Shown: positions 7,580-51,780 of the stretch, in pieces
Layout: each line of letters begins with the position of its first letter
Position numbering within the stretch: position 1 is the stretch's first letter
The notes under the pieces: model-generated
Seen by the model: only the letters and a program-made list of their open reading frames with translations
The model's database searches: none
What the model was told of the DNA's origin: nothing
Assembly (NCBI GenBank): GCA_965228875.1
Contig: OZ245843.1
Location: 1,966,616-2,030,615, forward strand
DNA length: 64,000 bases
Direction of reading: 5' to 3'
Source: Thalassobaculaceae bacterium
GTDB taxonomy: Bacteria > Pseudomonadota > Alphaproteobacteria > Thalassobaculales > Thalassobaculaceae
Translations under genes and position numbers: made by a program

Positions 7580-9954
7580 CTAGCGAGCGGCCTGGATCGC
7601 CTCCCAGACCCGCTGCGGTGTCGCCGGCATGTCGATATGTGTGATCCCGTAAACGCTCAGCGCGTCGACAACGGCATTCATCACCGACGGCAGCGAGCCC
7701 GCGCAACCGGCCTCGCCGCAGCCCTTGGCGCCAAGCAGGTTGGTGGTCGCCGGTACCGCGTGGAAATCGATGGCGAAGTCCGGTGCGCTGTCGGCCCGCG
7801 GTACGGCGTAGTCCATGTAGGACCCGGCCAGCACCTGCCCGTCCCCATCGTATACGCAGTGTTCCATCAGCGCCTGACCGATGCCCTGGACGACCCCGCC
7901 ATGGGCCTGACCGGCGACCAGCATCGGGTTCACCACCGTACCGAAATCGTTGACCATCGAATAGCGCACGACCTCGACCACGCCGGTCTGCGGGTCGACC
8001 TCGACCTCGGCCACGTGACAGCCGTTGGGGAAGGCCGACGGCGCCGACGCGTGCACATGGCTGACGTCGAGGCTGGTCGGCACGCCCTCGGGCAGTTCCA
8101 GCCCGCCGCGCAGGCGGTCGGCGATCTCCATGATACCGATCGACCGGTCGGTGCCGGCGATCGAGAACGTTCCCTCGGCGAATTCGATATCCGCCGCTGC
8201 CGCCTCCAGCAGGTGCCCGGCGATCTCTCTGCCCTTCTCGATCACGAGATCACCCGCCTCGATGATCGCCGCGCCGCTTGCCATGAGCGATTTCGAGCCG
8301 CCGGTTCCGCCGCCGGCGATCAGTTCGTCGCTGTCGCCCTGAAGCAGGCGGATCCGGTCGAACGGCACCCCGAGCTTCGAGTGCAGCACCTGGGCGAAGG
8401 CGGACCAGTGGCCCTGGCCGTAGTCCAGCGTGCCGGTGAGGATTGTCACCTCCCCACTGGCCTCGAAGCGCAGTCCGCCCATCTCGTTCTGCGGCGGCGC
8501 GGTCACCTCGAGATAGTCGCCTATTCCGATCCCGCGCAGCCTGCCCCGCGCCTCGCTCTCGGCACGGCGGTCGGCGAAGCCCGCCCAGTCGGCGAAGGCG
8601 ACGGCCCTGTCCAGCACGGCCGTGAAGTCGCCGCTGTCGTAGACCATGCCGGCACACGACTCGTAGGGGATCTCGTCCGGCCGCACATGGTTGCGGCGTC
8701 GCAGTTCGACCCGATCGATGCCCAGTTCGCGCGCCGCCGTCTCGATCAGCCGTTCCATGTAGTAATTGCCTTCCGGCCGCCCCGCCCCCCGATAGGCGCC
8801 GACCGGGCTGGTGTTCGTGAACACGCACCGGGTCGACACGCTCATCGCCGGGATGCGGTAGACGCTCGGCATGTTCTTGGCGATGTTCAGGGTCGCCATC
8901 ATCGGACTGACCATGCCGATATAGGCGCCCATGTTGCCGTAGCCGGTGACCCGGATCGCCAGAAACCGGCCGTCGGCGTCCAGCGCCAGTTCCGCCGTCA
9001 CCGCATGGTCGCGCCCGGCCTGGTCGGCGAGGAAGCTCTCCGAGCGGTCCGAGGTCCACTTGACGGGCCGGCCGAGGGTCCGGGCGGCGAGGAACAGGGG
9101 CCCGTACTCCGGATAGGTGAAGGCCTTCATCCCGAAGGAGCCGCCGACATCCCGAAGGAGCCGCCGACGTTGCCGGTCAGCACCCGCACCTTTTCCGGCG
9201 CGACGTTGAGAATCTCCTTCGCCAGCAGCCCCTTCAGGCCATGGACTCCCTGGGAGCCGACCTGCAGCGTCCACCGGTCGTCTTCATCATCGTAGGAGGC
9301 GATTGCGGCACGCGGCTCCATCGCCGAGACGACGATGCGGTTGTTGACGATGTCGAGCGACGTCACATGCGCGGCCGAGGCGAAGATGCCGGCCACCGCC
9401 TCCGCGTCGCCGAACTGGTAGTCGAGCACGGTGTTGTTCGCCACCGTGTCGTATAGCTGCGGCGCCCCGTCGGCGGCGGCAGCGGCGGCGTCGGTCACCG
9501 CCGGCAGCGGATCGATATCGGCGATCACCGCCTCGGCGGCGTCGCGGGCCTGGGACGGGGTCTCGGCGACGACCAGGGCGATCGGATCGCCGACGAAGCG
9601 GACCTTGTCCCCGGCCAGACACGGCCGCGTCGGGTTCGGCATGTCCGACCCGTCCCGGTTCTTCAGCGGCACCCCGCAGGTGATGTTGCCGAATCCCGCC
9701 TCTTCGAGGTCCGCGGCGGTGTAGATCCCGAGCACACCCGGCATGCCTGTCGCCTCGTCGACGTCGACCCCGGTCAGAACGCCGTGGGCGATCTGGCTGC
9801 GGACGAACACGCCGTAGGCCTGGCCTGCGACGTTGACGTCGTCGGTGTAGCGCCCGTGGCCGGTCAGCAGCGTCGGATCCTCGTTGCGCGGCACCGGCTG
9901 GCCGATCCCGAACTTCATCGTGGCGAGCGCGGTGTCCTGCTTCACGTCGTTCAT
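7580..9954 (-). pseudogene. Xanthine dehydrogenase/CoxL-like molybdopterin large subunit, frameshifted
   Basis: N-part 9127..9954 and C-part 7580..~9150 are in different frames; motifs GGSFG, AYRGAGRPE, GQGH and KGCGE; removing one 20-bp repeat unit gives a 784-aa ORF. Confidence 0.9.
9128..9167. repeat. Perfect 20-bp tandem duplication (CATCCCGAAGGAGCCGCCGA x2)
   Basis: Read directly at 9128-9147 and 9148-9167. Confidence 0.97.
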
Positions 9955-10162
9955 GGCCTGTCTCCGGTTCGCGCGGCGGTGTGGACGGGCCCCGACCGCG
10001 TCCGAGCCGACGTGGTGCCGCCTTCAGCAGGGATCACATCATCCGCAGGGTACCGAGATCAACCGCGTGCGCGGCGTCCGGAACCGGGGGTTGCCTTCGC
10101 CAGCGCGAGCAGTCAATTCTCCTGCACACGATTTCCAAGCCCCGCACCAACGGAGAGCCCCC

Positions 10163-10609
10163 ATGCAATACCTCCACACCATGGTTCGCATCAAAGACGT
10201 GGACGAAAGCCTGAACTTCTACTGCGGTCTGCTCGGTATGGAGGAGATCCGGCGCTACGACAGCGAGAAGGGCCGGTTCACCAACATCTTCCTGGCGGCT
10301 CCCGAGGACAAGGAGAGCGCCGCCTCCGACAAGAAGGCGCCGATGCTGGAGCTGACCTACAACTGGGACCCGGAGGACTACAAGGTCGAGGGCCGCGCCT
10401 GGGGCCACCTCGCCTTCCGCGTCGACGACGTCTACGCCACCTGCCAGAAGCTGATGGACAACGGCGTGACCATCAACCGCCCGCCCCGCGACGGCTACAT
10501 GGCGTTCGTCAAGTCGCCGGACGGCATCTCCATCGAACTGCTGAACGCCGACGGCCCGAAGGACCCGGCCGAGCCCTGGGCCTCGATGGGCAACACCGGC
10601 AGCTGGTAG
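10163..10609 (+). CDS. gloA: Lactoylglutathione lyase (glyoxalase I, VOC family)
   Basis: YLHTMVR, LELTYNWD, GHLAFRV and RPPRDGYMAF...SPDGISIEL motifs. Confidence 0.9.
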   Translation: MQYLHTMVRIKDVDESLNFYCGLLGMEEIRRYDSEKGRFTNIFLAAPEDKESAASDKKAPMLELTYNWDPEDYKVEGRAWGHLAFRVDDVYATCQKLMDNGVTINRPPRDGYMAFVKSPDGISIELLNADGPKDPAEPWASMGNTGSW

Positions 10610-10703
10610 GACCCGCGGGAACGATAACCGCCCGCAGCCCCGGCCCGTATCGGGACGGCGGGCGGCGACGGACGCGGGAGCGATGGGACGCCTGCGGTGA
10701 GCG

Positions 10704-11873
10704 TTACCCCTCGATCCCCAGTTCGCGCAGCACCTCGTCGGTATGCTCCCCGAGCCCCGGGGGCGGGCGGTCGATGGTCGGACCGTCCGCGGCACTCCGG
10801 TAGGGCGCCGCCGGAAGCCGCACCGGGTGGTCGAAGCCCAAGGGCGCCGGCACCTCCACCAGAGTGCCGCGATGGGCGAGTTGAGGCTCCTCGACGGCAT
10901 CGGGTATCGCGTTCACACGGCTGATCGGCACGCCCCGCGCACCGAGCCGCTTCGCCCAGGACGTGGCGGTGTCCTTCAGGAACGCCTCGCGCAGGGTGCT
11001 GTCCACCAGTTCCCGGTTGGCGATCCGGGCCTTGCTGTCGGCGAAGCGCGGATCCTCCAGCAGGTGGCCCAACCCCATCTCGTCAAGCACAGCCTCCACG
11101 TGGGTCTGCATGGTCGCCGCCATCAGCACCGTGCCCTGCGAGCACTCGAAGCTGTTGGCGGTCGGCAGGTGCGTCGCCGAACTGTTGCCGATCAGCCCCC
11201 CCGGATTGCCGTCCACCGTCCACTGCGCGATCGACGGCGCCTGGATGTTGAGCGCAGCGTCCAGCATCGCGACGTCGAGGTACTGCCCTTCGCCGGTGCG
11301 CTCGCGGCGGAACAGGGCGGCGGCGACCGCATAGGCGGCCGAGGCGCCGGTGAAAAGGTCGACGGGAAAGTAGCCGGTCCGCATCGGACCGGTCTGCGGC
11401 GATCCATTGGTCGACATCATGCCCGACGCCGCCTGGATCGCGCCGTCATAGGCCCCTTCCCGGGACCGCGGTCCGCTGGCGCCATAGCCGGTGATCTGAC
11501 AGTAGACCACGTCCGGCCGGATCGCCCGCACATCCTCCCAACCGAGGCCAAGGCGCTCGGCCACGCCGCCGCGAAAATTCTGCGCGACCACGTCGGCGGT
11601 CTCGATCAGGCGGTGGGCTATGCGACGGCCCTCGTCCGATTTCAGGTCGATGGCGACGCTGCGCTTGCCGTGGTTCAGGGCCAGAAACGCCGAGCCCATG
11701 TCGATCTCGGTATACGGGCTCGGGATCATGCGGTTGCGCATCTGATCGCCGGCGCCGGGCGCCTCGATCTTGATGACGTCCGCCCCCTCCATCGCCAGGA
11801 GCGCCGTCAGATACGGCCCCGACAGGACCTGTGTGAAATCGACGACGCGGATGCCCTCGAACGCTCTCGCCAC
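10704..11873 (-). CDS. CaiB/BaiF class III CoA-transferase
   Basis: GIRVVDFTQVLSGP, GADVIKIE, NHGKRS, YDGAIQAASG and PPGLGEHT motifs; GTG start after GGAGG. Confidence 0.92.
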   Translation of the reverse strand: MARAFEGIRVVDFTQVLSGPYLTALLAMEGADVIKIEAPGAGDQMRNRMIPSPYTEIDMGSAFLALNHGKRSVAIDLKSDEGRRIAHRLIETADVVAQNFRGGVAERLGLGWEDVRAIRPDVVYCQITGYGASGPRSREGAYDGAIQAASGMMSTNGSPQTGPMRTGYFPVDLFTGASAAYAVAAALFRRERTGEGQYLDVAMLDAALNIQAPSIAQWTVDGNPGGLIGNSSATHLPTANSFECSQGTVLMAATMQTHVEAVLDEMGLGHLLEDPRFADSKARIANRELVDSTLREAFLKDTATSWAKRLGARGVPISRVNAIPDAVEEPQLAHRGTLVEVPAPLGFDHPVRLPAAPYRSAADGPTIDRPPPGLGEHTDEVLRELGIEG

Positions 11874-11997
11874 GCATGCCTCCCTGATCTCCGGGTCTTG
11901 CCGCCCGCCCATGCTCCCCGCACGCTAGCGCGGATCGGGCCGGCAGGGGAGCATCCGCCCGCACGCCCCAGACAAAAAGACCACACGGGAGAACGCC

Positions 11998-12798
11998 ATG
12001 ACCGACGCAACGACTACCGGCGAGACGATTACCGGCGAGACCATCAGAGGGGCGGCCTCCGACCTCTCCGACCTGCTGAAGCTGCGGACCTACCCCTTTG
12101 GGATGAAACTGTTCGAGGAGGTGGAGGAGATGAAGGCCGTACCGGGTATCCGCACGCCCATGGACGGCATTCCCTTCACCACCTGCCAGCTCGTCACCCA
12201 GGTCCGCACCGCCGGGTTCACGCTGGGGATCGTGCGCGACAACCTGCGTCCGAACGCAAGCTGCGGCGCCAATATCGGCCTGGAGGAGGTACCGGAACGT
12301 CTTGCCTCCGGCGAGCAGATGGATGGCGTCTGGTTCGACAACCGGGAAGCGGCGCGCAAACACCAGGCGGAGATGCCACGGGTGGCGCCCGGCCGGTACT
12401 CCGGTCTCTGCGCCTCGCCGTTGCGCACCGGGCGGCTCGATCCGCCGGATGTCTGTCTGTTCTACGCCTCTCCGGGACAGATGATCCTGTTCATCAACGG
12501 ACTGCAGTTCAAAGACTACCGCCGGTACGATTTCACCATCACCGGAGAGAGCGCCTGCGCCGACAGTTGGGGGCGGGCGCTGAGCACCCGCCAGACCAGC
12601 CTCTCGATCCCGTGCTATGCGGAGCGGCGCTATGGCGGCGTTGCCGACGACGAACTGCTGATGGCGTGCCCGCCGGACGAGTTCCTGCGCGGGGTCGAGG
12701 GGCTGAAAGGCCTCGGCAAGAACGGCCTGCGCTACCCCTACCCGCCGTTCGGCGCCTTCGCCGACCCGGCGATCGGGATGTCGAAGAGCTACGGCTGA
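11998..12798 (+). CDS. DUF169 family protein
   Basis: TTCQ, ESACADSW and SIPCYAERRYGG motifs. Confidence 0.75.
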   Translation: MTDATTTGETITGETIRGAASDLSDLLKLRTYPFGMKLFEEVEEMKAVPGIRTPMDGIPFTTCQLVTQVRTAGFTLGIVRDNLRPNASCGANIGLEEVPERLASGEQMDGVWFDNREAARKHQAEMPRVAPGRYSGLCASPLRTGRLDPPDVCLFYASPGQMILFINGLQFKDYRRYDFTITGESACADSWGRALSTRQTSLSIPCYAERRYGGVADDELLMACPPDEFLRGVEGLKGLGKNGLRYPYPPFGAFADPAIGMSKSYG

Positions 12799-12864
12799 TC
12801 ACCCTTGCCGATTTCCTCCCCGGCTTGTTCCGGGGCGGAAGCCGGGCGATCTCCCTGGGGGCGC

Positions 12865-14094
12865 TCAGCGCTGCAGCGCCCTCAGCCGCACCGTTCCCGC
12901 CAGCAGGAAACCCGCGACTCCGGCCAGGATCCACAGCGACAGATCGAAGCTGTGGGTCGCATCGTAGACCAGGCCGAGCAGGATCGGACCGCCGGCGCCG
13001 CCGACCTCGGCGGCGGAGAAGAACAGGCCGCTGGCCGTTCCCGCCCGCTCCTCGCCCACGCCTTCGGTCTCGACGAGGGTGAGGATCGCCACCGTCATCA
13101 GCGACGACCTGGCGATACCCTGGAGCGCGAGGCCGATGGTCAGTGCCGGCTGCCCCGAGGCCCAGAGCAGGACGCAGGCGATGAGCGCGGCCGCCGCCAG
13201 CAGGCCGAGCACCAGATGCCGGTGCTCCGGCGTGGCCAGGCGCGGGATGGTGAGCGAGGCGGCAATGCCGATCACCGTCGGCACGGTGGCCCAGTAGCCC
13301 GCCTCGACCGCCGTCATGCCGCCGACCCGAAGAATCTCCGGCAGCCAGTTCGCGAGACCGTGGTTGAGGGTGAAGATCGCCACGCTCATCGCCAGCAGGA
13401 GCCGAACCGCCGGCAGGCGCAGAAGCTCGCCGATCACCTCGCGCTGGGGGCGGGGCTTCGCGGCGCTCTTCGGCGGGTCGTGACGCCGCGCGGCCGGAAG
13501 GCTGGCGATGGCGAACCAGGTGCAGGCGCCGAACGCCGCCACCGCCGACCACAGCAGCAGCACCGCCCGCCAGTCGCCGCCGAAGGCCGGCATCAGCACC
13601 GAGTTGGTCAGCGACAGCGCGGCGATGGAGCCGAGCGCCGGGCCGGTTATGTAGATCCCCATCGCGAGGCCGCGGTCGCTGCCCTTGAACCAGCGGGCGA
13701 TCTCCTTCGGTGCACCGGCCGATACGATCGGGCCGCCGATCCCGAAGATGGCGACGGCGACGAACATCATCGCGGCACTGTCGGCGAGACCGCGCAGCAG
13801 GCCCGACAGCGCGACGATCAGCGCCCCCAGGAAGATCGCCCGGCGCGCGCCCACACGGTCGAGGAAGCTGCCGCACGGGACCGCCGCCACGATGTAGGTG
13901 AGCTGCCAGATGCCGAGCACCGCCCCCATGGCGGTATGGCTGATCTCCAGGTCGCGGGTGACCGGGCCGACGATCGGGGCCAGGCCGGCGATGGTCAGGC
14001 CGAAGCAGAAATACGCGGTCCACACGCCAAACAGGATCGCCCAGCGGATCGGCGGCGCCGGGGGTACGGCGCTCGCCGCCGCGTCATCGCTCAT
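12865..14094 (-). CDS. MFS transporter (CynX/NimT-like)
   Basis: 12 TM segments, GSFLDRVGARR motif A, NWLPEIL. Confidence 0.88.
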   Translation of the reverse strand: MSDDAAASAVPPAPPIRWAILFGVWTAYFCFGLTIAGLAPIVGPVTRDLEISHTAMGAVLGIWQLTYIVAAVPCGSFLDRVGARRAIFLGALIVALSGLLRGLADSAAMMFVAVAIFGIGGPIVSAGAPKEIARWFKGSDRGLAMGIYITGPALGSIAALSLTNSVLMPAFGGDWRAVLLLWSAVAAFGACTWFAIASLPAARRHDPPKSAAKPRPQREVIGELLRLPAVRLLLAMSVAIFTLNHGLANWLPEILRVGGMTAVEAGYWATVPTVIGIAASLTIPRLATPEHRHLVLGLLAAAALIACVLLWASGQPALTIGLALQGIARSSLMTVAILTLVETEGVGEERAGTASGLFFSAAEVGGAGGPILLGLVYDATHSFDLSLWILAGVAGFLLAGTVRLRALQR

Positions 14095-14133
14095 GTGTCG
14101 GTCCCATGCGGTCTTCCGGGATGCCGGGGCCGC

Positions 14134-15768
<1,635 letters not shown>

Positions 15769-45579: not shown

Positions 45580-46077
45580 TTACTTGACGGTCAGCTTGGC
45601 AATCTGGACGTTCAGGATCAAATCCGGATCGACCAGTTCGCGCAACAGCTTCCAGGCATTGTTGCGGACACGTTGGATGCCGTCATAGCCATTGAGCTGC
45701 TGCGGCGTGAGGCTCGACAGGAAGACGATCATGCCGTCGCGGATCCGCGGCTCCTCCGCCGCGATGGCCTGCACCGCGCCCTCGTTCGGCAACTCGATCG
45801 TGATGCTGAGCAGCAGGAACACCGGATAGCCACGGTTCGACTGCAGGTTCACGACGAACTCGTCGAGGGTGTGGAACACGGAACCCGGCGGGCTCGGCTT
45901 GCTCGGCGGCGGCGCGGTGTTCTCCTTGCGCTCGATCTCCGCCTTCTGTTCGGCCGTCAACTCGGGCTCGGCCTGCTGCAGACCGAAGCCGGGGATCAGT
46001 CCGGCGACGAATGCGCCGGCACCGGCGCCCAGGAGCAGGATCAGCGGCAGCAGGACGAACAGCAGGAGCTTCTTCAT
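45580..46077 (-). CDS. fliL: Flagellar basal body-associated FliL family protein
   Basis: N-terminal TM (KKLLLFVLLPLILLLGAGAG), EFVVNL and PRIRD motifs. Confidence 0.8.
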   Translation of the reverse strand: MKKLLLFVLLPLILLLGAGAGAFVAGLIPGFGLQQAEPELTAEQKAEIERKENTAPPPSKPSPPGSVFHTLDEFVVNLQSNRGYPVFLLLSITIELPNEGAVQAIAAEEPRIRDGMIVFLSSLTPQQLNGYDGIQRVRNNAWKLLRELVDPDLILNVQIAKLTVK

Positions 46078-46192: not shown

Positions 46193-46444
46193 ATGGTCAA
46201 GCCTGCCGAAAGCCACTGGAGCAAGTTCGCGCGCGAGCAGCCGGACGTGAGCGAGGCGGACCGGGCACCCGGTGCTGCGGCGAAGGCCGAGTCCTTCATT
46301 ATCGAACTGGCCGACGAGAACCTGCTGCTGAAGATCAAGCGCGACGACGGGCGTGTCGCGGTCGTCGAGCTGACGCCGGAGGTCGCGCTCTATCTGCGGG
46401 AGTACCTGACCAACGCGCTCGCGACCATCGGCATGCCGGACTGA
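46193..46444 (+). CDS. Hypothetical protein
   Basis: ORF with host-like codon bias, GAGGA upstream, TATAAT at 46143. Confidence 0.6.
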   Translation: MVKPAESHWSKFAREQPDVSEADRAPGAAAKAESFIIELADENLLLKIKRDDGRVAVVELTPEVALYLREYLTNALATIGMPD

Positions 46445-46904: not shown

Positions 46905-48695
46905 TCAGCGGCCGACGGCATACCCCTGCATTCCACGGGGATTGGCGCCGGCCTTGAGCATCGGCCCGTCCTTCACCGCGGCGCTGAGCCGGCCCTCCGA
47001 CCAGTCCTCGCCGACCTGTACGTCGTGGCCCCGGCGTTCCAGTTCCCGGACCGTCGCCTCGGAGAACCGTCCCTCGACAACGAGCTTGCCCGGCTTGCGC
47101 CCACGCGGCCAGAACGAGCTCGGGAAATGCTCGCTGTGGAAGGCCGGACAGTCGATCGCTTCCTGGAGGTTCATGCCGTGTTCGACATGGTGCAGGAACA
47201 TGAGGGTCTGCCACTGGTCCTGCTGGTCGCCGCCGGGAGTGCCGAACGCCATGTAGGGCTCGCCGTCGCGCAGGGCGAAGCTCGGCGACAGCGTGGTCCG
47301 GGGACGGCGCTTCGGGCCCAGCGCCGACGGCGAACGCTCGTCCAGCCAGAACATCTGCGCACGGTTGCCCATGCAGAATCCCAGCTCCGGGATCACCGGC
47401 GACGACTGCAGCCAGCCGCCGCTCGGCGTCGCCGAGAACATGTTTCCGTCACGGTCGATCACGTCGATATGGACGGTGTCGCCCTTCATCGCCCCGCTCT
47501 TCGAAACCGTCGGCTCGCCCACCCCCATGCGCTCGAGTTCGCGCGGGTCGAGGGCGACATCGACCCCAAGCGCGGCGTCGATCGAGCCGGCGTAGCCCTC
47601 GATCATCCCCGGTCGCAGATCCATCGACGCCCGGTCGCCGATCAGCGCCCGACGCTCGGCGTTGTAGTCCGGCGAAAGCAGTTGGTCGGTCGGCACGGCG
47701 ACGAAGTCCGGATCGCCGTAGAACGCCTCGCGGTCGGCCATGGCGAGCTTGATCGCCTCGGTGACCGCGTGCACGAAGTCCGGCCCGGTCGGATCCATCT
47801 TCGCCACGCCCATGCCGTCGAGCAGCGCGAGCTGCTGCAGCATGGACGGCCCCTGGCTCCAAGCCCCGCACTTGGCGACGGTGTAGTTACCCCAATCGTA
47901 GGTCAGCGGCTCCTCGTAGTGGGATTCCCATCCCGCCAGATCGTCGGCGGTCAGGAGGCCCAGGTGCCGGCGGCCGGAGACGTCCATCATCGGAGCTGCG
48001 TGGAAATAGGCGTCAATCGCCTCGGCGACCCAGCCGCGGTACCAGATGTCGCGGGCCCGGTCGATCACCGCCTCGCGCGATCCGCCGCCGGCCTCCGCCT
48101 CCCTGACGATGCGGGCATAGGTCTCGCCCATCTTGGGATTCGAGAACAGACTGCCGGGCGCCGGCGGCTCGCCGTTCTTCAGATAGATCGCGGCCGACGT
48201 CGGCCATTCGGTCTCGAACAGCTCCTTCACCGTGTTGATCGTCGCCGCGATCCGCCCCACGGCGGGATACCCGTTGATGGCGTAGTCGATCGCCGGTTCC
48301 AGAACCTCGGCAAGGGTCATGGATCCATGGTCGCGCAACATCCGTAGCCAGCCGTCGAAAGCGCCTGGCACGACGGCGGGAAGGAACCCGCTGCCCGGCA
48401 CCAGGTCGAGGCCGAGGCCACGGATCGTGTCCATGGTCATCGCCGCCGGGCTCGGTCCCTGGGCGCAGAGCGCCTCCAGCTTACCGGTCTTCTTGCTGTA
48501 GAACAGAGCCGGAAGATCGCCGCCCGGACCGTTCAGATGCGGTTCCACAACCTGCAGCGTGAACCCGCAGGTCACGGCGGCGTCGAAGGCGTTCCCGCCA
48601 CGCTCCAGCGCGCGCATGCCGGCGGCCGAGCCGAGCCAGTGGGTGGAGGCGACGACACCGAAGGTGCCACGGATTTCCGGGCGCGTCGTGAACAT
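46905..48695 (-). CDS. Gamma-glutamyltransferase family protein
   Basis: GGNAFDAA, GD-TVH (Thr nucleophile), RPRTTLSP and FGTPGGD motifs. Confidence 0.92.
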   Translation of the reverse strand: MFTTRPEIRGTFGVVASTHWLGSAAGMRALERGGNAFDAAVTCGFTLQVVEPHLNGPGGDLPALFYSKKTGKLEALCAQGPSPAAMTMDTIRGLGLDLVPGSGFLPAVVPGAFDGWLRMLRDHGSMTLAEVLEPAIDYAINGYPAVGRIAATINTVKELFETEWPTSAAIYLKNGEPPAPGSLFSNPKMGETYARIVREAEAGGGSREAVIDRARDIWYRGWVAEAIDAYFHAAPMMDVSGRRHLGLLTADDLAGWESHYEEPLTYDWGNYTVAKCGAWSQGPSMLQQLALLDGMGVAKMDPTGPDFVHAVTEAIKLAMADREAFYGDPDFVAVPTDQLLSPDYNAERRALIGDRASMDLRPGMIEGYAGSIDAALGVDVALDPRELERMGVGEPTVSKSGAMKGDTVHIDVIDRDGNMFSATPSGGWLQSSPVIPELGFCMGNRAQMFWLDERSPSALGPKRRPRTTLSPSFALRDGEPYMAFGTPGGDQQDQWQTLMFLHHVEHGMNLQEAIDCPAFHSEHFPSSFWPRGRKPGKLVVEGRFSEATVRELERRGHDVQVGEDWSEGRLSAAVKDGPMLKAGANPRGMQGYAVGR

Positions 48696-48760
48696 GGCGC
48701 AAACTCTTTGGAACGGTTTTCGCAAGGGATCGGTCGACACTATAGGAGCGCGGGCGATCA

Positions 48761-48897
48761 CCCGGCAAGAACTGCCAGGCAGCCGCCCCCGCTCCGGGCC
48801 GCCGATTAAGAAATGTAAATCTCGTTGCGGAAAAACAATGAGAAGCTTACATTTCACGGTGGTCGAGAACCGACCGGAACCGGCAGCCTTTGCCGGG
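48761..48897. promoter_or_regulatory. Two GGCA-N5-TGCC (ftr/FlbD-like) dyads flanking an AT-rich inverted repeat
   Basis: CCCGGCAAGAACTGCCAG (48761-78); GAAATGTAA...TTACATTTC (48810-55); CCGGCAGCCTTTGCCGGG (48880-97). Confidence 0.5.
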
Positions 48898-48926
48898 TCC
48901 CACGGCACAAACAGGAGTTTTCCGCC

Positions 48927-51446
48927 GTGACCAACTTCGCAGCCGCATCGGCCATTCTGGGTGGCGCCGCCGGGGGTAACGGCGGCCTGTTGGGTTCCGC
49001 CTATGGCGGCGGATCCAGCTTGTCGGCGATTGCAGCCTGGCGCAGCTACGAGCGCGATCAGGTTGCCGCGCGTGCATCTTTTGCCGAACGCGCCGACGTC
49101 AAGTCGATGATCGAGAGCTTCCAGAAGGACTCGAAGAAGCTTGAGTCGGTCGACGACCTGCTCGAGGACCGGGAAACGCTTCAGTTCGTTCTGACCGCGT
49201 TCGGGCTCGATTCCGAGATCAACAACCCGGGCAAGATCAGCAAGGTCATCGAGAGCGATCCGGACGACATCAACTCGTTCGCCAACCGCCTGGCCGACAC
49301 CCGCTTCGGCGAACTCGCGAAGTTCCTCAATACCGTCGAGTTCGGCGTCAAGAACGTCCAGCTTTCCACCAAGCAGTCGACGATCATCGACAAGTGGCTG
49401 ACCACCCAGTTCGAGCGCGATCTGGGAAGCCAGAACTCGGCCGCCCGCGATGCGTTGTTCTTCCTGCGCCGGATCAACTCGGTCAACAGCACCTTCGAGA
49501 TCCTTGGCGACAGCGCCCTGCGGGCCATCGTCACCGACGCGCTGAACCTGCCCGCCGAGATCGCCCGCCAGTCCGTCGACAAACAGGCCTCCCTGATCGA
49601 GAACGGCCTCGACCTGGACGCGCTGAAGCTGAGTTCCTCCTCCACGAGCAGCCTGTCCCGCCTGGAGCAGCTCAATGCGGATCTCAGCGCGGTGAACGCG
49701 GGCTCGGCCGCGATCAAATCGGCGACGGACTCCCTGTCGGCCATCGTCAACAAGTTGGACTCCCTGCGCACGCAGTATGCCGACATCGTCAATATCACCG
49801 ACCCGGCCGGCGTGAATGCCGACGAGATTCCCTACCAGGAAGCGGCCATTCCCGAACTGCTGCGCCAGCGCGGCCTCGTCGCCGTCTCCAACCAGGCGAC
49901 GCAGAACACCCGCATCGTCCTGGACGAACTGGACAGACTCTCCCTGAAGCTCCGCAATGCCGAGGATGAGGAGGCGTTCCAGGAACTGCAGGCGCAGTAT
50001 CTGGACTACGCCGACCGGGTTCTCGGCGACGACGGCTTCATCAACAGCGCCACCTTCTACGACCCGGCGAGCGGCCAGACCCAGAACCTGCTGCGCAATG
50101 GCACGGCCGGTGCGCTGCCGGCCGGAACCGATGCGGTCGCCGACGAGATCAACACGGAAGTCGACTCCGACGGCACCCGGGCGATCACCCGGTCGACCGA
50201 CCTGTCCGATTTTCTGACCGACCTGCAGGCGGCGCGCGACGCAGTCGACGCCGCCACCTACGCCACCCGTTCCGCCGACATCGACACCGCCGAGGCGAGC
50301 TACGACACGGCGGAAACCGCCTTCAAGTCGGCCGAATCCTTGAACGGCATCAACGTGGTCAGCATCACCAACGCGCTGAACAACACCACGTTCGCCGTCG
50401 AACTGGACACGCAGTCGCTGAGCACCGGTCTGCTGTCGATCGACGACAGCCTGGACCGCGCCACGATGATCGAGCGGGTGCTGAACGACATCCGCCAGCT
50501 TGCCAAGGACGCCCAGGAAGACGACGCCGACTTCACCGAGATCAACGCCTACTACACCGCCCGCCTGTCCGAACTGGAGAGCCTGATCGGCACCCCGGGC
50601 GAGGTCAGCGACGGCACCAATACGGTCACGCTCGACAACCTGCTGTCGGACGGCACGTTCAACTACACGGTGTTCGACACCACCGAGGCCCGGGCCGAGG
50701 GGGGCGACCTGACGACCTCGATCCGCAACCTGCTGCCGGCCTCGATCGACGACGCGGCCGCCGGCGCGGCCCTTGAGACACAGGTCGATGACGACCTGAA
50801 ACCGGCCCTGGAAACCGTCACCGATCAGCTTCAGCGCGACCGTACCGTCATTTCCTACGCGCTCGAGACGGTTGATCCGCGCGGCAGCCTCGATGCCCAG
50901 ATCCGCCAGTACCGCGTCGAACTGGACTCCATCATCGAGAACGCCGCGAGCGACGGCGAGAACCTGCTGGGCGAGTTCGCCCAGGACATCAAGGTGGCGC
51001 TCGGATCGCTCGGCAGCTCGCTGACCATCGATGCTCAGACCGCTTTCGAGACGGATTTCGGCACGGCGCTGGAGGCGTTCGACTACGTCGCCGTCAGCGC
51101 CGGCGACGACAATGCCCGCATCAGCGCCCTGAACGACGCCCTGTTCATCGCCCAGGGCGCCCTCGGGCGACTGAAGGCGGAGGACTACGCCCTCGACATC
51201 CAGAAGCAGATCGTCAACGAGGAGAAGCGGAAGATCGAGGGCGACGGCGGATCCGCCGGCGACTTCCTGAAACCGATCGAATTCACCGACGAGGCGCGCA
51301 AGTTCATTGAACGGTATCTGATCCAGAAGGACCTGGAAGCCCAGGGTTTCAGCGTCAGCCAGAACTATAACGCCGACGCCGCGCTGGCCAGTCAGATCGG
51401 TTCGATCCTGCCGCAGTCCAACGGCCTGCTGAACCTCGTGGTTTAG
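48927..51446 (+). CDS. DUF1217-domain flagellar protein with a large flagellin-like insertion (839 aa)
   Basis: DDLL.D...L.FVLTAFGL, SFANRLAD.RF, FE..LG, ALFF.R, EILGD.AL, LNLP and DKQA motifs, plus terminal KFIERYL; AGGAG RBS before the GTG. Confidence 0.8.
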   Translation: MTNFAAASAILGGAAGGNGGLLGSAYGGGSSLSAIAAWRSYERDQVAARASFAERADVKSMIESFQKDSKKLESVDDLLEDRETLQFVLTAFGLDSEINNPGKISKVIESDPDDINSFANRLADTRFGELAKFLNTVEFGVKNVQLSTKQSTIIDKWLTTQFERDLGSQNSAARDALFFLRRINSVNSTFEILGDSALRAIVTDALNLPAEIARQSVDKQASLIENGLDLDALKLSSSSTSSLSRLEQLNADLSAVNAGSAAIKSATDSLSAIVNKLDSLRTQYADIVNITDPAGVNADEIPYQEAAIPELLRQRGLVAVSNQATQNTRIVLDELDRLSLKLRNAEDEEAFQELQAQYLDYADRVLGDDGFINSATFYDPASGQTQNLLRNGTAGALPAGTDAVADEINTEVDSDGTRAITRSTDLSDFLTDLQAARDAVDAATYATRSADIDTAEASYDTAETAFKSAESLNGINVVSITNALNNTTFAVELDTQSLSTGLLSIDDSLDRATMIERVLNDIRQLAKDAQEDDADFTEINAYYTARLSELESLIGTPGEVSDGTNTVTLDNLLSDGTFNYTVFDTTEARAEGGDLTTSIRNLLPASIDDAAAGAALETQVDDDLKPALETVTDQLQRDRTVISYALETVDPRGSLDAQIRQYRVELDSIIENAASDGENLLGEFAQDIKVALGSLGSSLTIDAQTAFETDFGTALEAFDYVAVSAGDDNARISALNDALFIAQGALGRLKAEDYALDIQKQIVNEEKRKIEGDGGSAGDFLKPIEFTDEARKFIERYLIQKDLEAQGFSVSQNYNADAALASQIGSILPQSNGLLNLVV

Positions 51447-51522: not shown

Positions 51523-51780
51523 TCATTCGCCGTCGAGATCGACCCGACGGGCGCATTCCTCCAGCACCCAGACCCGGATGGCGCTCGAAAGGTTTGCGGT
51601 CCGGGAACGGTCGATTTCAGTGACCAACTGGTTCACCGACTGACCGCGGGCGTCGGCGAGGACCGCCAGACGCTCCCAGAACGCCTGCTCCATCGACACG
51701 CTCGTGGCGTGGCCGGCGATCATCACCGAGCGCTTTCGCGGCGCGGCCGGGTCGACGGCATTCGGTGGTGACTCGGGCAT
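51523..51780 (-). CDS. Ribbon-helix-helix (RHH_4) DNA-binding protein
   Basis: KRSV.IAGHATSVSME..FW and NLSSAIR motifs. Confidence 0.9.
   Translation of the reverse strand: MPESPPNAVDPAAPRKRSVMIAGHATSVSMEQAFWERLAVLADARGQSVNQLVTEIDRSRTANLSSAIRVWVLEECARRVDLDGE

Follow-up and report, generated by a model that had tools for sequence, protein, structure and literature searches.

DUF1217 (PF06748) is given as 'Function unknown' in the available part of a 2026 survey (PMC13277936). Its common form is a short protein of 229-271 amino acids (aa), and a solved structure is that of AGR_C_984p from Agrobacterium tumefaciens (PDB 2O8S; 323 aa). The short forms have a helical domain, a closing helix and a tail of the ...LNLL[VA] type, and their link to the flagellum comes from flagellar loci in Sneathiella and in Brucella, where the DUF1217 gene is placed between motA and flgF in the available part of PMC7410920. 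In the current analysis we describe a much longer member from a Thalassobaculaceae bacterium. It is encoded in a stretch of 64,000 nucleotides (contig OZ245843.1, positions 1,966,616 to 2,030,615), referred to as the window, by the open frame 48927-51446 on the forward strand (839 aa), which is the sole DUF1217 gene of the complete 4.96-Mb source genome. The window protein shares the helical domain, closing helix, tail and flagellar link of the short forms. It differs from them in having 540 residues between the ...LIE..LDL.. segment and the closing helix, where the short forms have nothing. Its two ingredients, a flagellum-linked domain and the flagellin core, are both known; their nested combination is undescribed.

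Flagellin (FliC/FljK) is the second system to be compared. Each unit of the inserted region of the window protein has the layout of the flagellin D1 domain, comprising a long helix, a shorter return helix, an NLL.G beta-hairpin and a long C-terminal helix. The window protein differs from flagellin in the absence of D0, in having no Pfam match over threshold, in its three nested D1 domains and in the DUF1217 domain standing in the place of D0. The D1 domain of FlgL (HAP3) resembles aa 295-490 at Z 12.4-12.6, which lies within the range of helical bundles, and D0 is again lacking in the window protein. The filament cap protein FliD pairs helical legs with a globular head; unlike it, the short DUF1217 forms have no D1 legs, and neither FliD_N nor FliD_C is among the Pfam matches of the window protein at E <=1. 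The flagella of Thalassobaculaceae are built without FliD and another protein must therefore act as cap. FlaY of Caulobacter has been named a FliD analog in the available parts of 10.1101/2024.09.25.614892 and PMC13277936; a search of the Caulobacter control genome gave no DUF1217, and the window protein is therefore not FlaY.

A DUF1217 domain split by a long insertion

Pfam assigns DUF1217 to aa 91-234 of the window protein with 122.4 bits (cut-off 22.9; E 2.4e-35), covering profile positions 1-144 of 149, and 2O8S matches aa 23-233 by sequence (E 3.7e-25). In an alignment with 18 short forms the equivalent of ...KQASLIENGLDLD continues directly into the equivalent of FLKPIEFTDEARKFIERYL, and a Gly-rich tail with LNLL[VA] at its end comes next. 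The ...LIENGLDLD-type and the KFIERYL-type segments are some 540 residues apart in the window protein; as both segments are contiguous in the short forms, this stretch is an insertion in the last loop of DUF1217. Compared with the same 18 proteins, both the closing-helix motif (ARKFIERYL, aa 790-798) and the tail motif (GLLNLVV, aa 833-839) of DUF1217 are present. The short proteins end in GLNLLV or LDLLA, and GLLNLVV represents this family-wide C-terminal motif. The stretch around the closing helix (aa 776-806) is the most conserved part of the protein, with a mean identity of 0.75.

An AlphaFold2 model of the whole protein was built on 34 relatives, with a mean predicted local distance difference test score (pLDDT) of 83.7 and a predicted template modelling score of 0.63. 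2O8S superposes on residues 31..806 of this predicted model with Z 22.4 and a root mean square deviation (rmsd) of 2.7 A over 220 of 230 residues (VIA-align), and in the model the displaced KFIERYL helix therefore comes to pack against the N-terminal part of DUF1217. As modelled, a single DUF1217 domain is made up of residues 31-235 together with helix 788-805. The parts of the protein, all on the forward strand, are as follows.

48927..49016, +: N-terminus, aa 1-30, Gly/Ala/Ser-rich, without Lys or Arg, predicted disordered (pLDDT 27-31)
49017..49631, +: main, N-terminal helical part of DUF1217, aa 31-235, by PF06748 and by 2O8S in sequence and structure; the ...DKQASLIENGLDLDALK segment ends at aa 234
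49650..49808, +: predicted first long helix of the outer D1 (ND1a-like), aa 242-294, by the two-chain fold (see below), with helix 245-285 at pLDDT >90; ends in ITDPAG (aa 290-295)
49809..50396, +: predicted inner D1 module a, complete, with a larger, four-strand hairpin region, aa 295-490, by FlgL superposition and hhalign (86%)
50082-50102, +: QNLLRNG, aa 386-392
50397..50876, +: predicted inner D1 module b, complete, aa 491-650, by FljL superposition and hhalign (94.5%)
50634-50654, +: DNLLSDG, aa 570-576
50877..51251, +: predicted remainder of the outer D1 (ND1b-like helix, hairpin with ENLLG, CD1-like helix 728-771), aa 651-775, by hhalign (95.2%); TVDPRG (aa 648-653) lies at its start
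50958-50972, +: ENLLG, aa 678-682
51252..51344, +: closing helix of DUF1217, aa 776-806, aligned to the DKFIxRFL helix of the short forms and within the 2O8S superposition; FTDEARKFIERYL at 51282-51320, aa 786-798
51345..51446, +: flexible tail, aa 807-839 and stop, ending in GLLNLVV (pLDDT 31-47)

GTG 48927 is the likely start, because relatives begin at the equivalent position (consensus MxNAxxALxILGG) and an AGGAG lies 8 nucleotides (nt) upstream; a longer alternative would begin with TTG at 48825. The protein contains no Cys, no His and two Trp (positions 38 and 157), both of them in the DUF1217 part and none in the insert. The first 30 residues, being without Lys or Arg and without a long hydrophobic stretch, are unlike a Sec or Tat signal. 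An NCBIfam scan of the 839-aa protein returned no family.

Flagellin-type D1 domains in the insertion

The insert is, in the predicted structure and by profile comparison, made up of three D1 domains of the flagellin/FlgL type. A long helix followed by a shorter one, a beta-hairpin and a second long helix make up a pattern seen three times in the model of the insert, and most of aa 250-770 has a pLDDT >90, making it the most confident part of the model. A Foldseek comparison returned flagellins at weak E-values (0.06-0.5) with probabilities up to 1.00. These matches have been re-scored with VIA-align, a tool that carries the warning that scores up to about Z 13 can arise by chance between helical bundles. 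Residues 491-649 superpose on Caulobacter FljL with Z 16.8 (rmsd 2.2 A, 150 residues), on the B. cereus flagellin and on FljK with Z 16.6 each, and on many other flagellins, the overall range being Z 16.8-14 and rmsd 2.1-2.7 A over about 150 residues. Residues 295-490 superpose on FlgL (2d4x, Z 12.6, rmsd 3.9 A, 175 residues; 5zj0, Z 12.6; 5ziy, Z 12.4) over 165-176 residues with rmsd 3.3-3.9 A. The flagellin matches exceed the chance level of helical bundles and take in the hairpin, whereas the FlgL matches do not exceed it.

The same assignment is obtained from sequence profiles. A profile of 20 short alphaproteobacterial flagellins was compared by hhalign with the separate pieces of the protein. 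It matches aa 295-490 at 86% (E 5.1e-6, flagellin residues 58-211), aa 491-650 at 94.5% (E 7.7e-8, residues 66-214) and aa 651-775 at 95.2% (E 2.5e-8, residues 111-229), while aa 242-294 are weakly similar (3.8%) to ND1a of flagellin. Of the 275 flagellin residues, the units cover 58-229 only. The two DUF1217 parts give 0.4% and 0.9%; reversed units reach at most 1.0% and ten column shuffles per unit at most 3.5%, the controls for aa 295-490 remaining at or below 0.6%.

A profile made from the insert only (18 sequences) was further searched against 1.84 billion representative proteins at E <=0.001 and gave 98 proteins. Among the weakest of them, P0242 and P0243 (E 3.1e-4 and 3.7e-4) are flagellins by Pfam, and the matches to both fall in the unit aa 651-775. 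One relative of 777 aa comes close to recognition by Pfam itself, scoring 26.0 bits on Flagellin_N, for which the cut-off is 26.6.

Nesting of the D1 domains

The third D1 domain is discontinuous. The unit aa 651-775 starts just past TVDPRG and matches only the second half of D1, and the model suggests that the missing first helix is supplied by aa 242-294, so that two complete D1 domains (295-490 and 491-650) are nested within a third (242-294 plus 651-775), with module boundaries at ITDPAG and TVDPRG. Folded as two separate chains, aa 242-294 and aa 651-775 give a score of 0.78 against 0.00 for the best control, with a contact agreement of at least 98% and a partner pLDDT of at least 83. Such a mark is reached by 116 of 157 solved complexes and by 2 of 215 mismatched pairs. 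In this fold helices 245-288 and 728-771 run antiparallel, the former also touching aa 651-681 and the hairpin. The fold was run on an alignment of our own, and the halves of a flagellin-like domain may pass from their likeness to solved flagellins; the result is therefore to be taken as fold likeness and not as independent proof. In the model the DUF1217 core is placed where flagellin has its D0 coiled coil: the chain passes from it into the beginning of the first D1 helix and returns to it from the end of the last one.

Some results speak against this description and have been weighed with it. The structure of the whole protein is a predicted model. Flagellin_N (PF00669) has no match on the whole protein at E <=1, and its best score, 13.9 bits (E 0.056, cut-off 26.6, profile positions 105-135), is obtained on aa 651-775 taken alone. 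Flagellin_C (PF00700) matches neither the whole protein nor its pieces. A search of PDB chains by sequence with the whole protein and the family profile returned 2O8S alone and no flagellin. The three units show no significant mutual similarity by hhalign, and internal repeats are therefore not demonstrable from sequence. D0 segments were sought at both termini by comparison with the flagellin profile, where aa 1-70 gave 0.3% and aa 800-839 gave 1.3%; having no D0, the protein carries flagellin cores yet is not a flagellin. With these points taken into account, we hold the architecture as a whole, a DUF1217 domain carrying nested D1 domains, with great confidence.

The description follows closely what a sequence-only reading of the same DNA had put forward. 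That reading had recognised DUF1217 motifs in about the first 235 residues and a closing helix displaced to the C-terminus by an insert of ~530 aa, and it had noted the absence of Cys and His, an insert free of Trp, a Gly/Ala/Ser-rich N-terminus without a Sec signal and the far smaller size usual for DUF1217 proteins. Domain search, short-form alignment and composition count bear it out in each of these respects, and the motifs that it quoted, the three NLL units included, are all found at or within ~20 nt of where it had placed them. The likeness of the insert to flagellin D1, the packing of the KFIERYL segment on the N-terminal DUF1217 part and the order DUF1217[outer D1[D1-a, D1-b]] with ITDPAG and TVDPRG as bounds, which it had proposed, are recovered in the model and the profile comparisons. 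The internal-repeat comparison that it had suggested failed to reach significance, and its Flagellin_N check came out divided, with Pfam below threshold and hhalign matching flagellins at 86-95%. It had also not recognised the architecture as a described one. In line with this, a literature search, with subscription journals outside its coverage and some sources available in part, returned no account of the function of DUF1217 or of the nested architecture, and a search of the same coverage returned no multi-D1 flagellin-like protein of alphaproteobacteria.

Relatives and variant forms

Relatives of aa 236-839 of near-equal length fall into 56 clusters, of 808-841 aa except for one piece of 634 aa, and PF06748 is found in 55 of the 56; those that are named belong to Thalassobaculum, Nisaea and Thalassobaculaceae, and the names of the closest ones place the source genome in Thalassobaculum. 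Carriers of the gene include Thalassobaculum litoreum, T. salexigens and Nisaea denitrificans. The matches of the insert profile are mostly 775-830 aa long with the insert beginning near aa 220-240, and all eight of the long matches that were scanned contain DUF1217. An arrangement shared by 55 of the 56 relatives of near-equal length, and by 98 representative clusters from the 1.84 billion proteins, is more than a product of chance. The source records name these relatives just 'DUF1217 domain-containing protein'.

Longer forms are encoded in marine metagenome genomes, with 1360 aa (L029:9923-14005) and 1446 aa (L032, open frame 9872-14212), and within the bacterial family the open frames of the gene reach 1701 aa. 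The 1360- and 1446-aa relatives keep the scaffold and add beta-barrels of the E1_FCCH and End_beta_barrel types in loops at the hairpin ends of the D1 modules. These barrels are small and repeated and are linked by LGSNPFTV-like repeats; the End_beta_barrel kind is known from phage endosialidase. Another family of the class (genome G016) encodes two long forms in tandem (973 and 928 aa), in which four NLL motifs are seen.

Single-module or split forms were sought among shorter proteins. Nine were returned and none of them has a single module; those inspected are short forms, one form with a different insert, or apparently truncated long forms with abrupt ends. In a different lineage (L090:6734-8125 on the forward strand, and P0065; about 441-463 aa) a D1 domain of the rod/hook proteins FlgE/F/G (PF22692) stands in the middle of DUF1217 at another insertion site. 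A further protein of 850 aa (L086:5968-8520, forward strand) has Thr/Gly-rich repeats, partial DUF1217-like repeats and a full C-terminal DUF1217, and the 350-aa frame directly upstream of it overlaps a weak, sub-threshold Flagellin_N match.

Occurrence together with flagellin

The presence of the insert was compared with that of Flagellin_N in 63 Thalassobaculaceae genomes, 44 of which are of high quality (completeness >=90%, contamination <=5%).

Insert present, Flagellin_N present: 48 of 63 genomes
Insert absent, Flagellin_N absent: 8 of 63 genomes
Insert absent, Flagellin_N present: 5 of 63 genomes, all 68-87% complete
Insert present, Flagellin_N absent: 2 of 63 genomes, one 62% complete (G078) and one with a stop-broken copy only (G090)

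The 44 high-quality genomes are without a discordant case, 37 having both and 7 neither. Joint losses of insert and flagellin are seen in at least four genera and in G090. The copy in G090 (C35:5085-6236, reverse strand) is interrupted by several stop codons in a genome that is 87% complete and has no flagellin match, and it looks like decay following loss of the flagellum. In a wider sample of 61 genomes of the class, DUF1217 was found in seven, all seven of which also have flagellin. We consider a tie of the gene to the flagellum very probable, its retention and loss going along with those of flagellin.

The flagellins of these bacteria are short, mostly open frames of 276-294 aa, a length that leaves space for D0 and D1 only; their D1 surface is therefore probably bare. 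Of the 63 family genomes one has a FliD_C match, and no such match was found in the seven class-sample genomes with DUF1217. The family's only FliD genome (G075; C80:5563-5973 and C120:5397-6299) also encodes a second, divergent flagellin (147.7 bits, 1000-aa frame), and the two together suggest an extra, acquired flagellar system. In Sneathiella (Sneathiella limimaris by its source name; L087:3659-11973, reverse strand) the order is flbT, flagellin, flaF, DUF1217 (259 aa), two tetratricopeptide-repeat sulfotransferase genes, flagellin and flaF. The sulfotransferase genes lie one on each strand and their products may modify flagellin.

Genomic neighbourhood

The genes adjoining the DUF1217 gene in the window, with the number of the 35 related loci that share them, are as follows.

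45580-46077, -: FliL paralog (Pfam FliL, E 1.2e-12), upstream in 31/35
46193-46444, +: small open reading frame of 83 aa without a family, upstream in 24/35
46905-48908, -: gamma-glutamyltranspeptidase gene, upstream in 32/35
51523-51780, -: small ribbon-helix-helix (RHH_4) gene converging on the 3' end of the DUF1217 gene, 6/35

The first three form a conserved upstream block. FliL is matched three times in the source genome, at 240.5 kb in the main flagellar cluster, at 2.012 Mb (the paralog in the window) and at 1.346 Mb. At 229-231 kb the genome also encodes FlgK and, in a 329-aa frame weakly matching Flagellin_N, a likely FlgL.

Upstream region

Upstream of the start codon the following region has been delineated from sequence and alignment.

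48796..48926, +: sigma-70-like promoter (TTGCGG, 17 nt, TACATT), conserved leader starting ACGGTGGTCGAGAACCGACCGG, and AGGAG ribosome-binding site

We infer the sigma-70-like promoter from letters and conservation. A look-up of RNA runs returned none for the gene. An alignment of 17 upstream regions of the Thalassobaculum group shows GTTG, TAnnnT and GGTGGYCGAGAA to be conserved; TTGC-N17-TAnnnT and then a leader starting GGTGGYCGAGAA are shared by the window and the 16 loci closest to it, all of them without a sigma-54 motif. Two other candidates have been rejected. GGCAG...TTGC upstream of the gene has the wrong spacing for a sigma-54 site, and a sigma-28 -10 element at GCCGATTAA (48800-48808) has no matching -35 and lies in a stretch that is not conserved in relatives.

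The situation differs in more distant relatives. In 13 of 35 related loci, motifs of the sigma-54 -24/-12 type are found 59-100 nt upstream of the start, nine of them with the strict TGGY-N7-TTGC, whose frequency in the source genome is 0.006 per 200 nt. These loci (L027-L038 and L040) are Nisaea-like, long-form and other distant ones, an example being TGGCCCGAGTTTTGCA. Similar motifs (TGGCCC-N5-TTGCG and CGGCAC-N5-TTGCT) precede flagellin genes of five relatives, and similar ones precede fla4 and flgK of the source genome. As the sigma-54-type motifs are present in Nisaea-like and long-form relatives and absent in the Thalassobaculum group, the type of promoter appears to have been exchanged within the family.

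The leader also contains an 18-mer, ATTTNACGGTGGNCGAGA, which occurs exactly twice in the 4.96-Mb genome, at 48851-48868 of the window and at C1:218338-218355; the first copy precedes the DUF1217 gene by 76 nt and the second a flagellin gene by 83 nt. We take the shared 18-mer as no more than a hint. In the leader of the DUF1217 gene it overlaps a small hairpin, GGTCG-AGAAC-CGACC; in relatives the hairpin reads GGCCG-AGAAA-CGGCC, its pairing kept by changes on both sides.

Proposed role and alternative explanations

The window protein is probably an undescribed part of the flagellum. The specific role that we propose, to which taken as a whole we give about even chances, is that of a dedicated flagellar accessory which is exported by the type III route and acts on the extracellular filament by docking of its D1 domains. 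It would be expressed together with the late flagellar genes and, because no other export signal is recognisable, would be secreted by way of the flagellar type III channel. Outside, it would act on the filament at the growing tip or along the surface, where its D1 modules would dock onto the exposed D1 lattice of the short, D0/D1-only flagellins and the DUF1217 core would perform the same task as in the short DUF1217 proteins. The beta-barrels of the long relatives, located at the hairpin ends of D1, approximately at the site of the surface domains of flagellins, fit such an exposed, outward-facing position. The proposal also agrees with the probably bare D1 surface of the short flagellins and with the lack of FliD in all but one genome of the family.

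A number of observations are unfavourable to this proposal. The termini of the window protein, at 0.3% and 1.3%, are not similar to flagellin D0. Its gene is set among metabolic genes at a distance of some 1.8 Mb from the main flagellar cluster (218-240 kb), the FliL paralog being the sole neighbour of a flagellar type. The genomes of the co-occurrence sample are related to one another and hence represent few independent events. A sigma-54 motif was sought upstream of the window gene and not found, and of the 28 flagellin loci in five relatives only 2 gave the flagellin-leader version of the 18-mer in a search at one mismatch. The model of a short DUF1217 protein, compared with 48,161 solved chains, matches 2O8S at Z 24.6 and the next best chain at Z 5.8; resembling 2O8S alone, the DUF1217 fold offers no clue to function.

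An alternative that we judge unlikely is a cytoplasmic mimic of flagellin, whose D1 modules would bind FlaF, FlbT or the export gate and so tune the synthesis or delivery of flagellin. The two FlaF genes of the source genome, the short DUF1217 gene of Sneathiella directly behind flagellin-flaF, the lack of both a signal peptide and D0 segments, and the leader 18-mer common to one flagellin gene leader are all in keeping with such a protein, and post-transcriptional control of flagellin in Caulobacter acts at the leader position. It is less easily reconciled with the relatives of 1360-1701 aa, whose phage-fibre-type beta-barrels at the module tips better suit an exposed structure. FliS-type chaperones grip the C-terminal D0 region of flagellin, and this is the very part that the window protein lacks.

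It is distinctly improbable, in our estimate, that DUF1217 proteins are the assembly cap or tip complex of the FliD-less alphaproteobacterial flagella. In Thalassobaculaceae and their relatives the DUF1217 core would then be the head and the nested D1 modules would be legs slotting into the D1 lattice at the filament end, and a like role on a different axial segment would fall to the lineage whose insert is a rod/hook D1. The case for a cap is weak because the short DUF1217 forms have no D1 and because 18 of the 25 flagellated, FliD-less genomes of the class sample are without DUF1217.

We assign a similarly low probability to an accessory of the basal body or motor, which would be exported to the periplasm like the rod proteins or FlgJ and act on rod, rings or stator together with the FliL paralog. 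The presence of that paralog upstream in 31 of 35 loci, the Brucella gene between motA and flgF (PMC7410920, available part) and the DUF1217 lineage with a FlgE/F/G-type D1 agree with it. The window protein, however, has inserted domains like those of flagellin and FlgL, a type at home in the junction and filament and not in the rod; the gamma-glutamyltranspeptidase gene separates the FliL paralog from the window gene, FliL being on the opposite strand; and among the genes scanned around the tandem long forms of G016 there is no FliL.

A surface fibre or adhesin unrelated to the flagellum, in which the D1 fold is reused with another secretion route and the co-occurrence reflects a free-living lifestyle, is highly improbable: the location of the gene outside flagellar clusters, the phage-fibre-like barrels of the long forms and a C-terminal hydrophobic motif after a Gly-rich linker, which could be a secretion signal, would suit it, but the gene matches flagellin exactly in 44 high-quality genomes and is a pseudogene in one genome that has lost flagellin, DUF1217 genes lie within flagellar loci in other orders, and no secretion-system genes adjoin the gene in the four loci scanned. 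The sequence-only reading had suggested a new component of the flagellum, possibly exported as cap, junction or decorated filament, or an adhesin; co-occurrence and co-loss support the former in part, by tying the gene to the flagellum, and the latter is left without support.

Implications

The flagellar accessory proposed here bears on a domain that is among the few conserved genes of alphaproteobacterial flagellar loci still without a known role. Three copies of a domain nested in one another are an unusual build for a protein. The gene is kept and lost with the flagellum in a very clean pattern, in bacteria that lack the usual filament cap, and type strains of Thalassobaculum and Nisaea are cultivable. 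For DUF1217 itself the predicted architecture gives a first structural hint, namely that the domain can occupy the place of flagellin D0 and carry flagellin cores.

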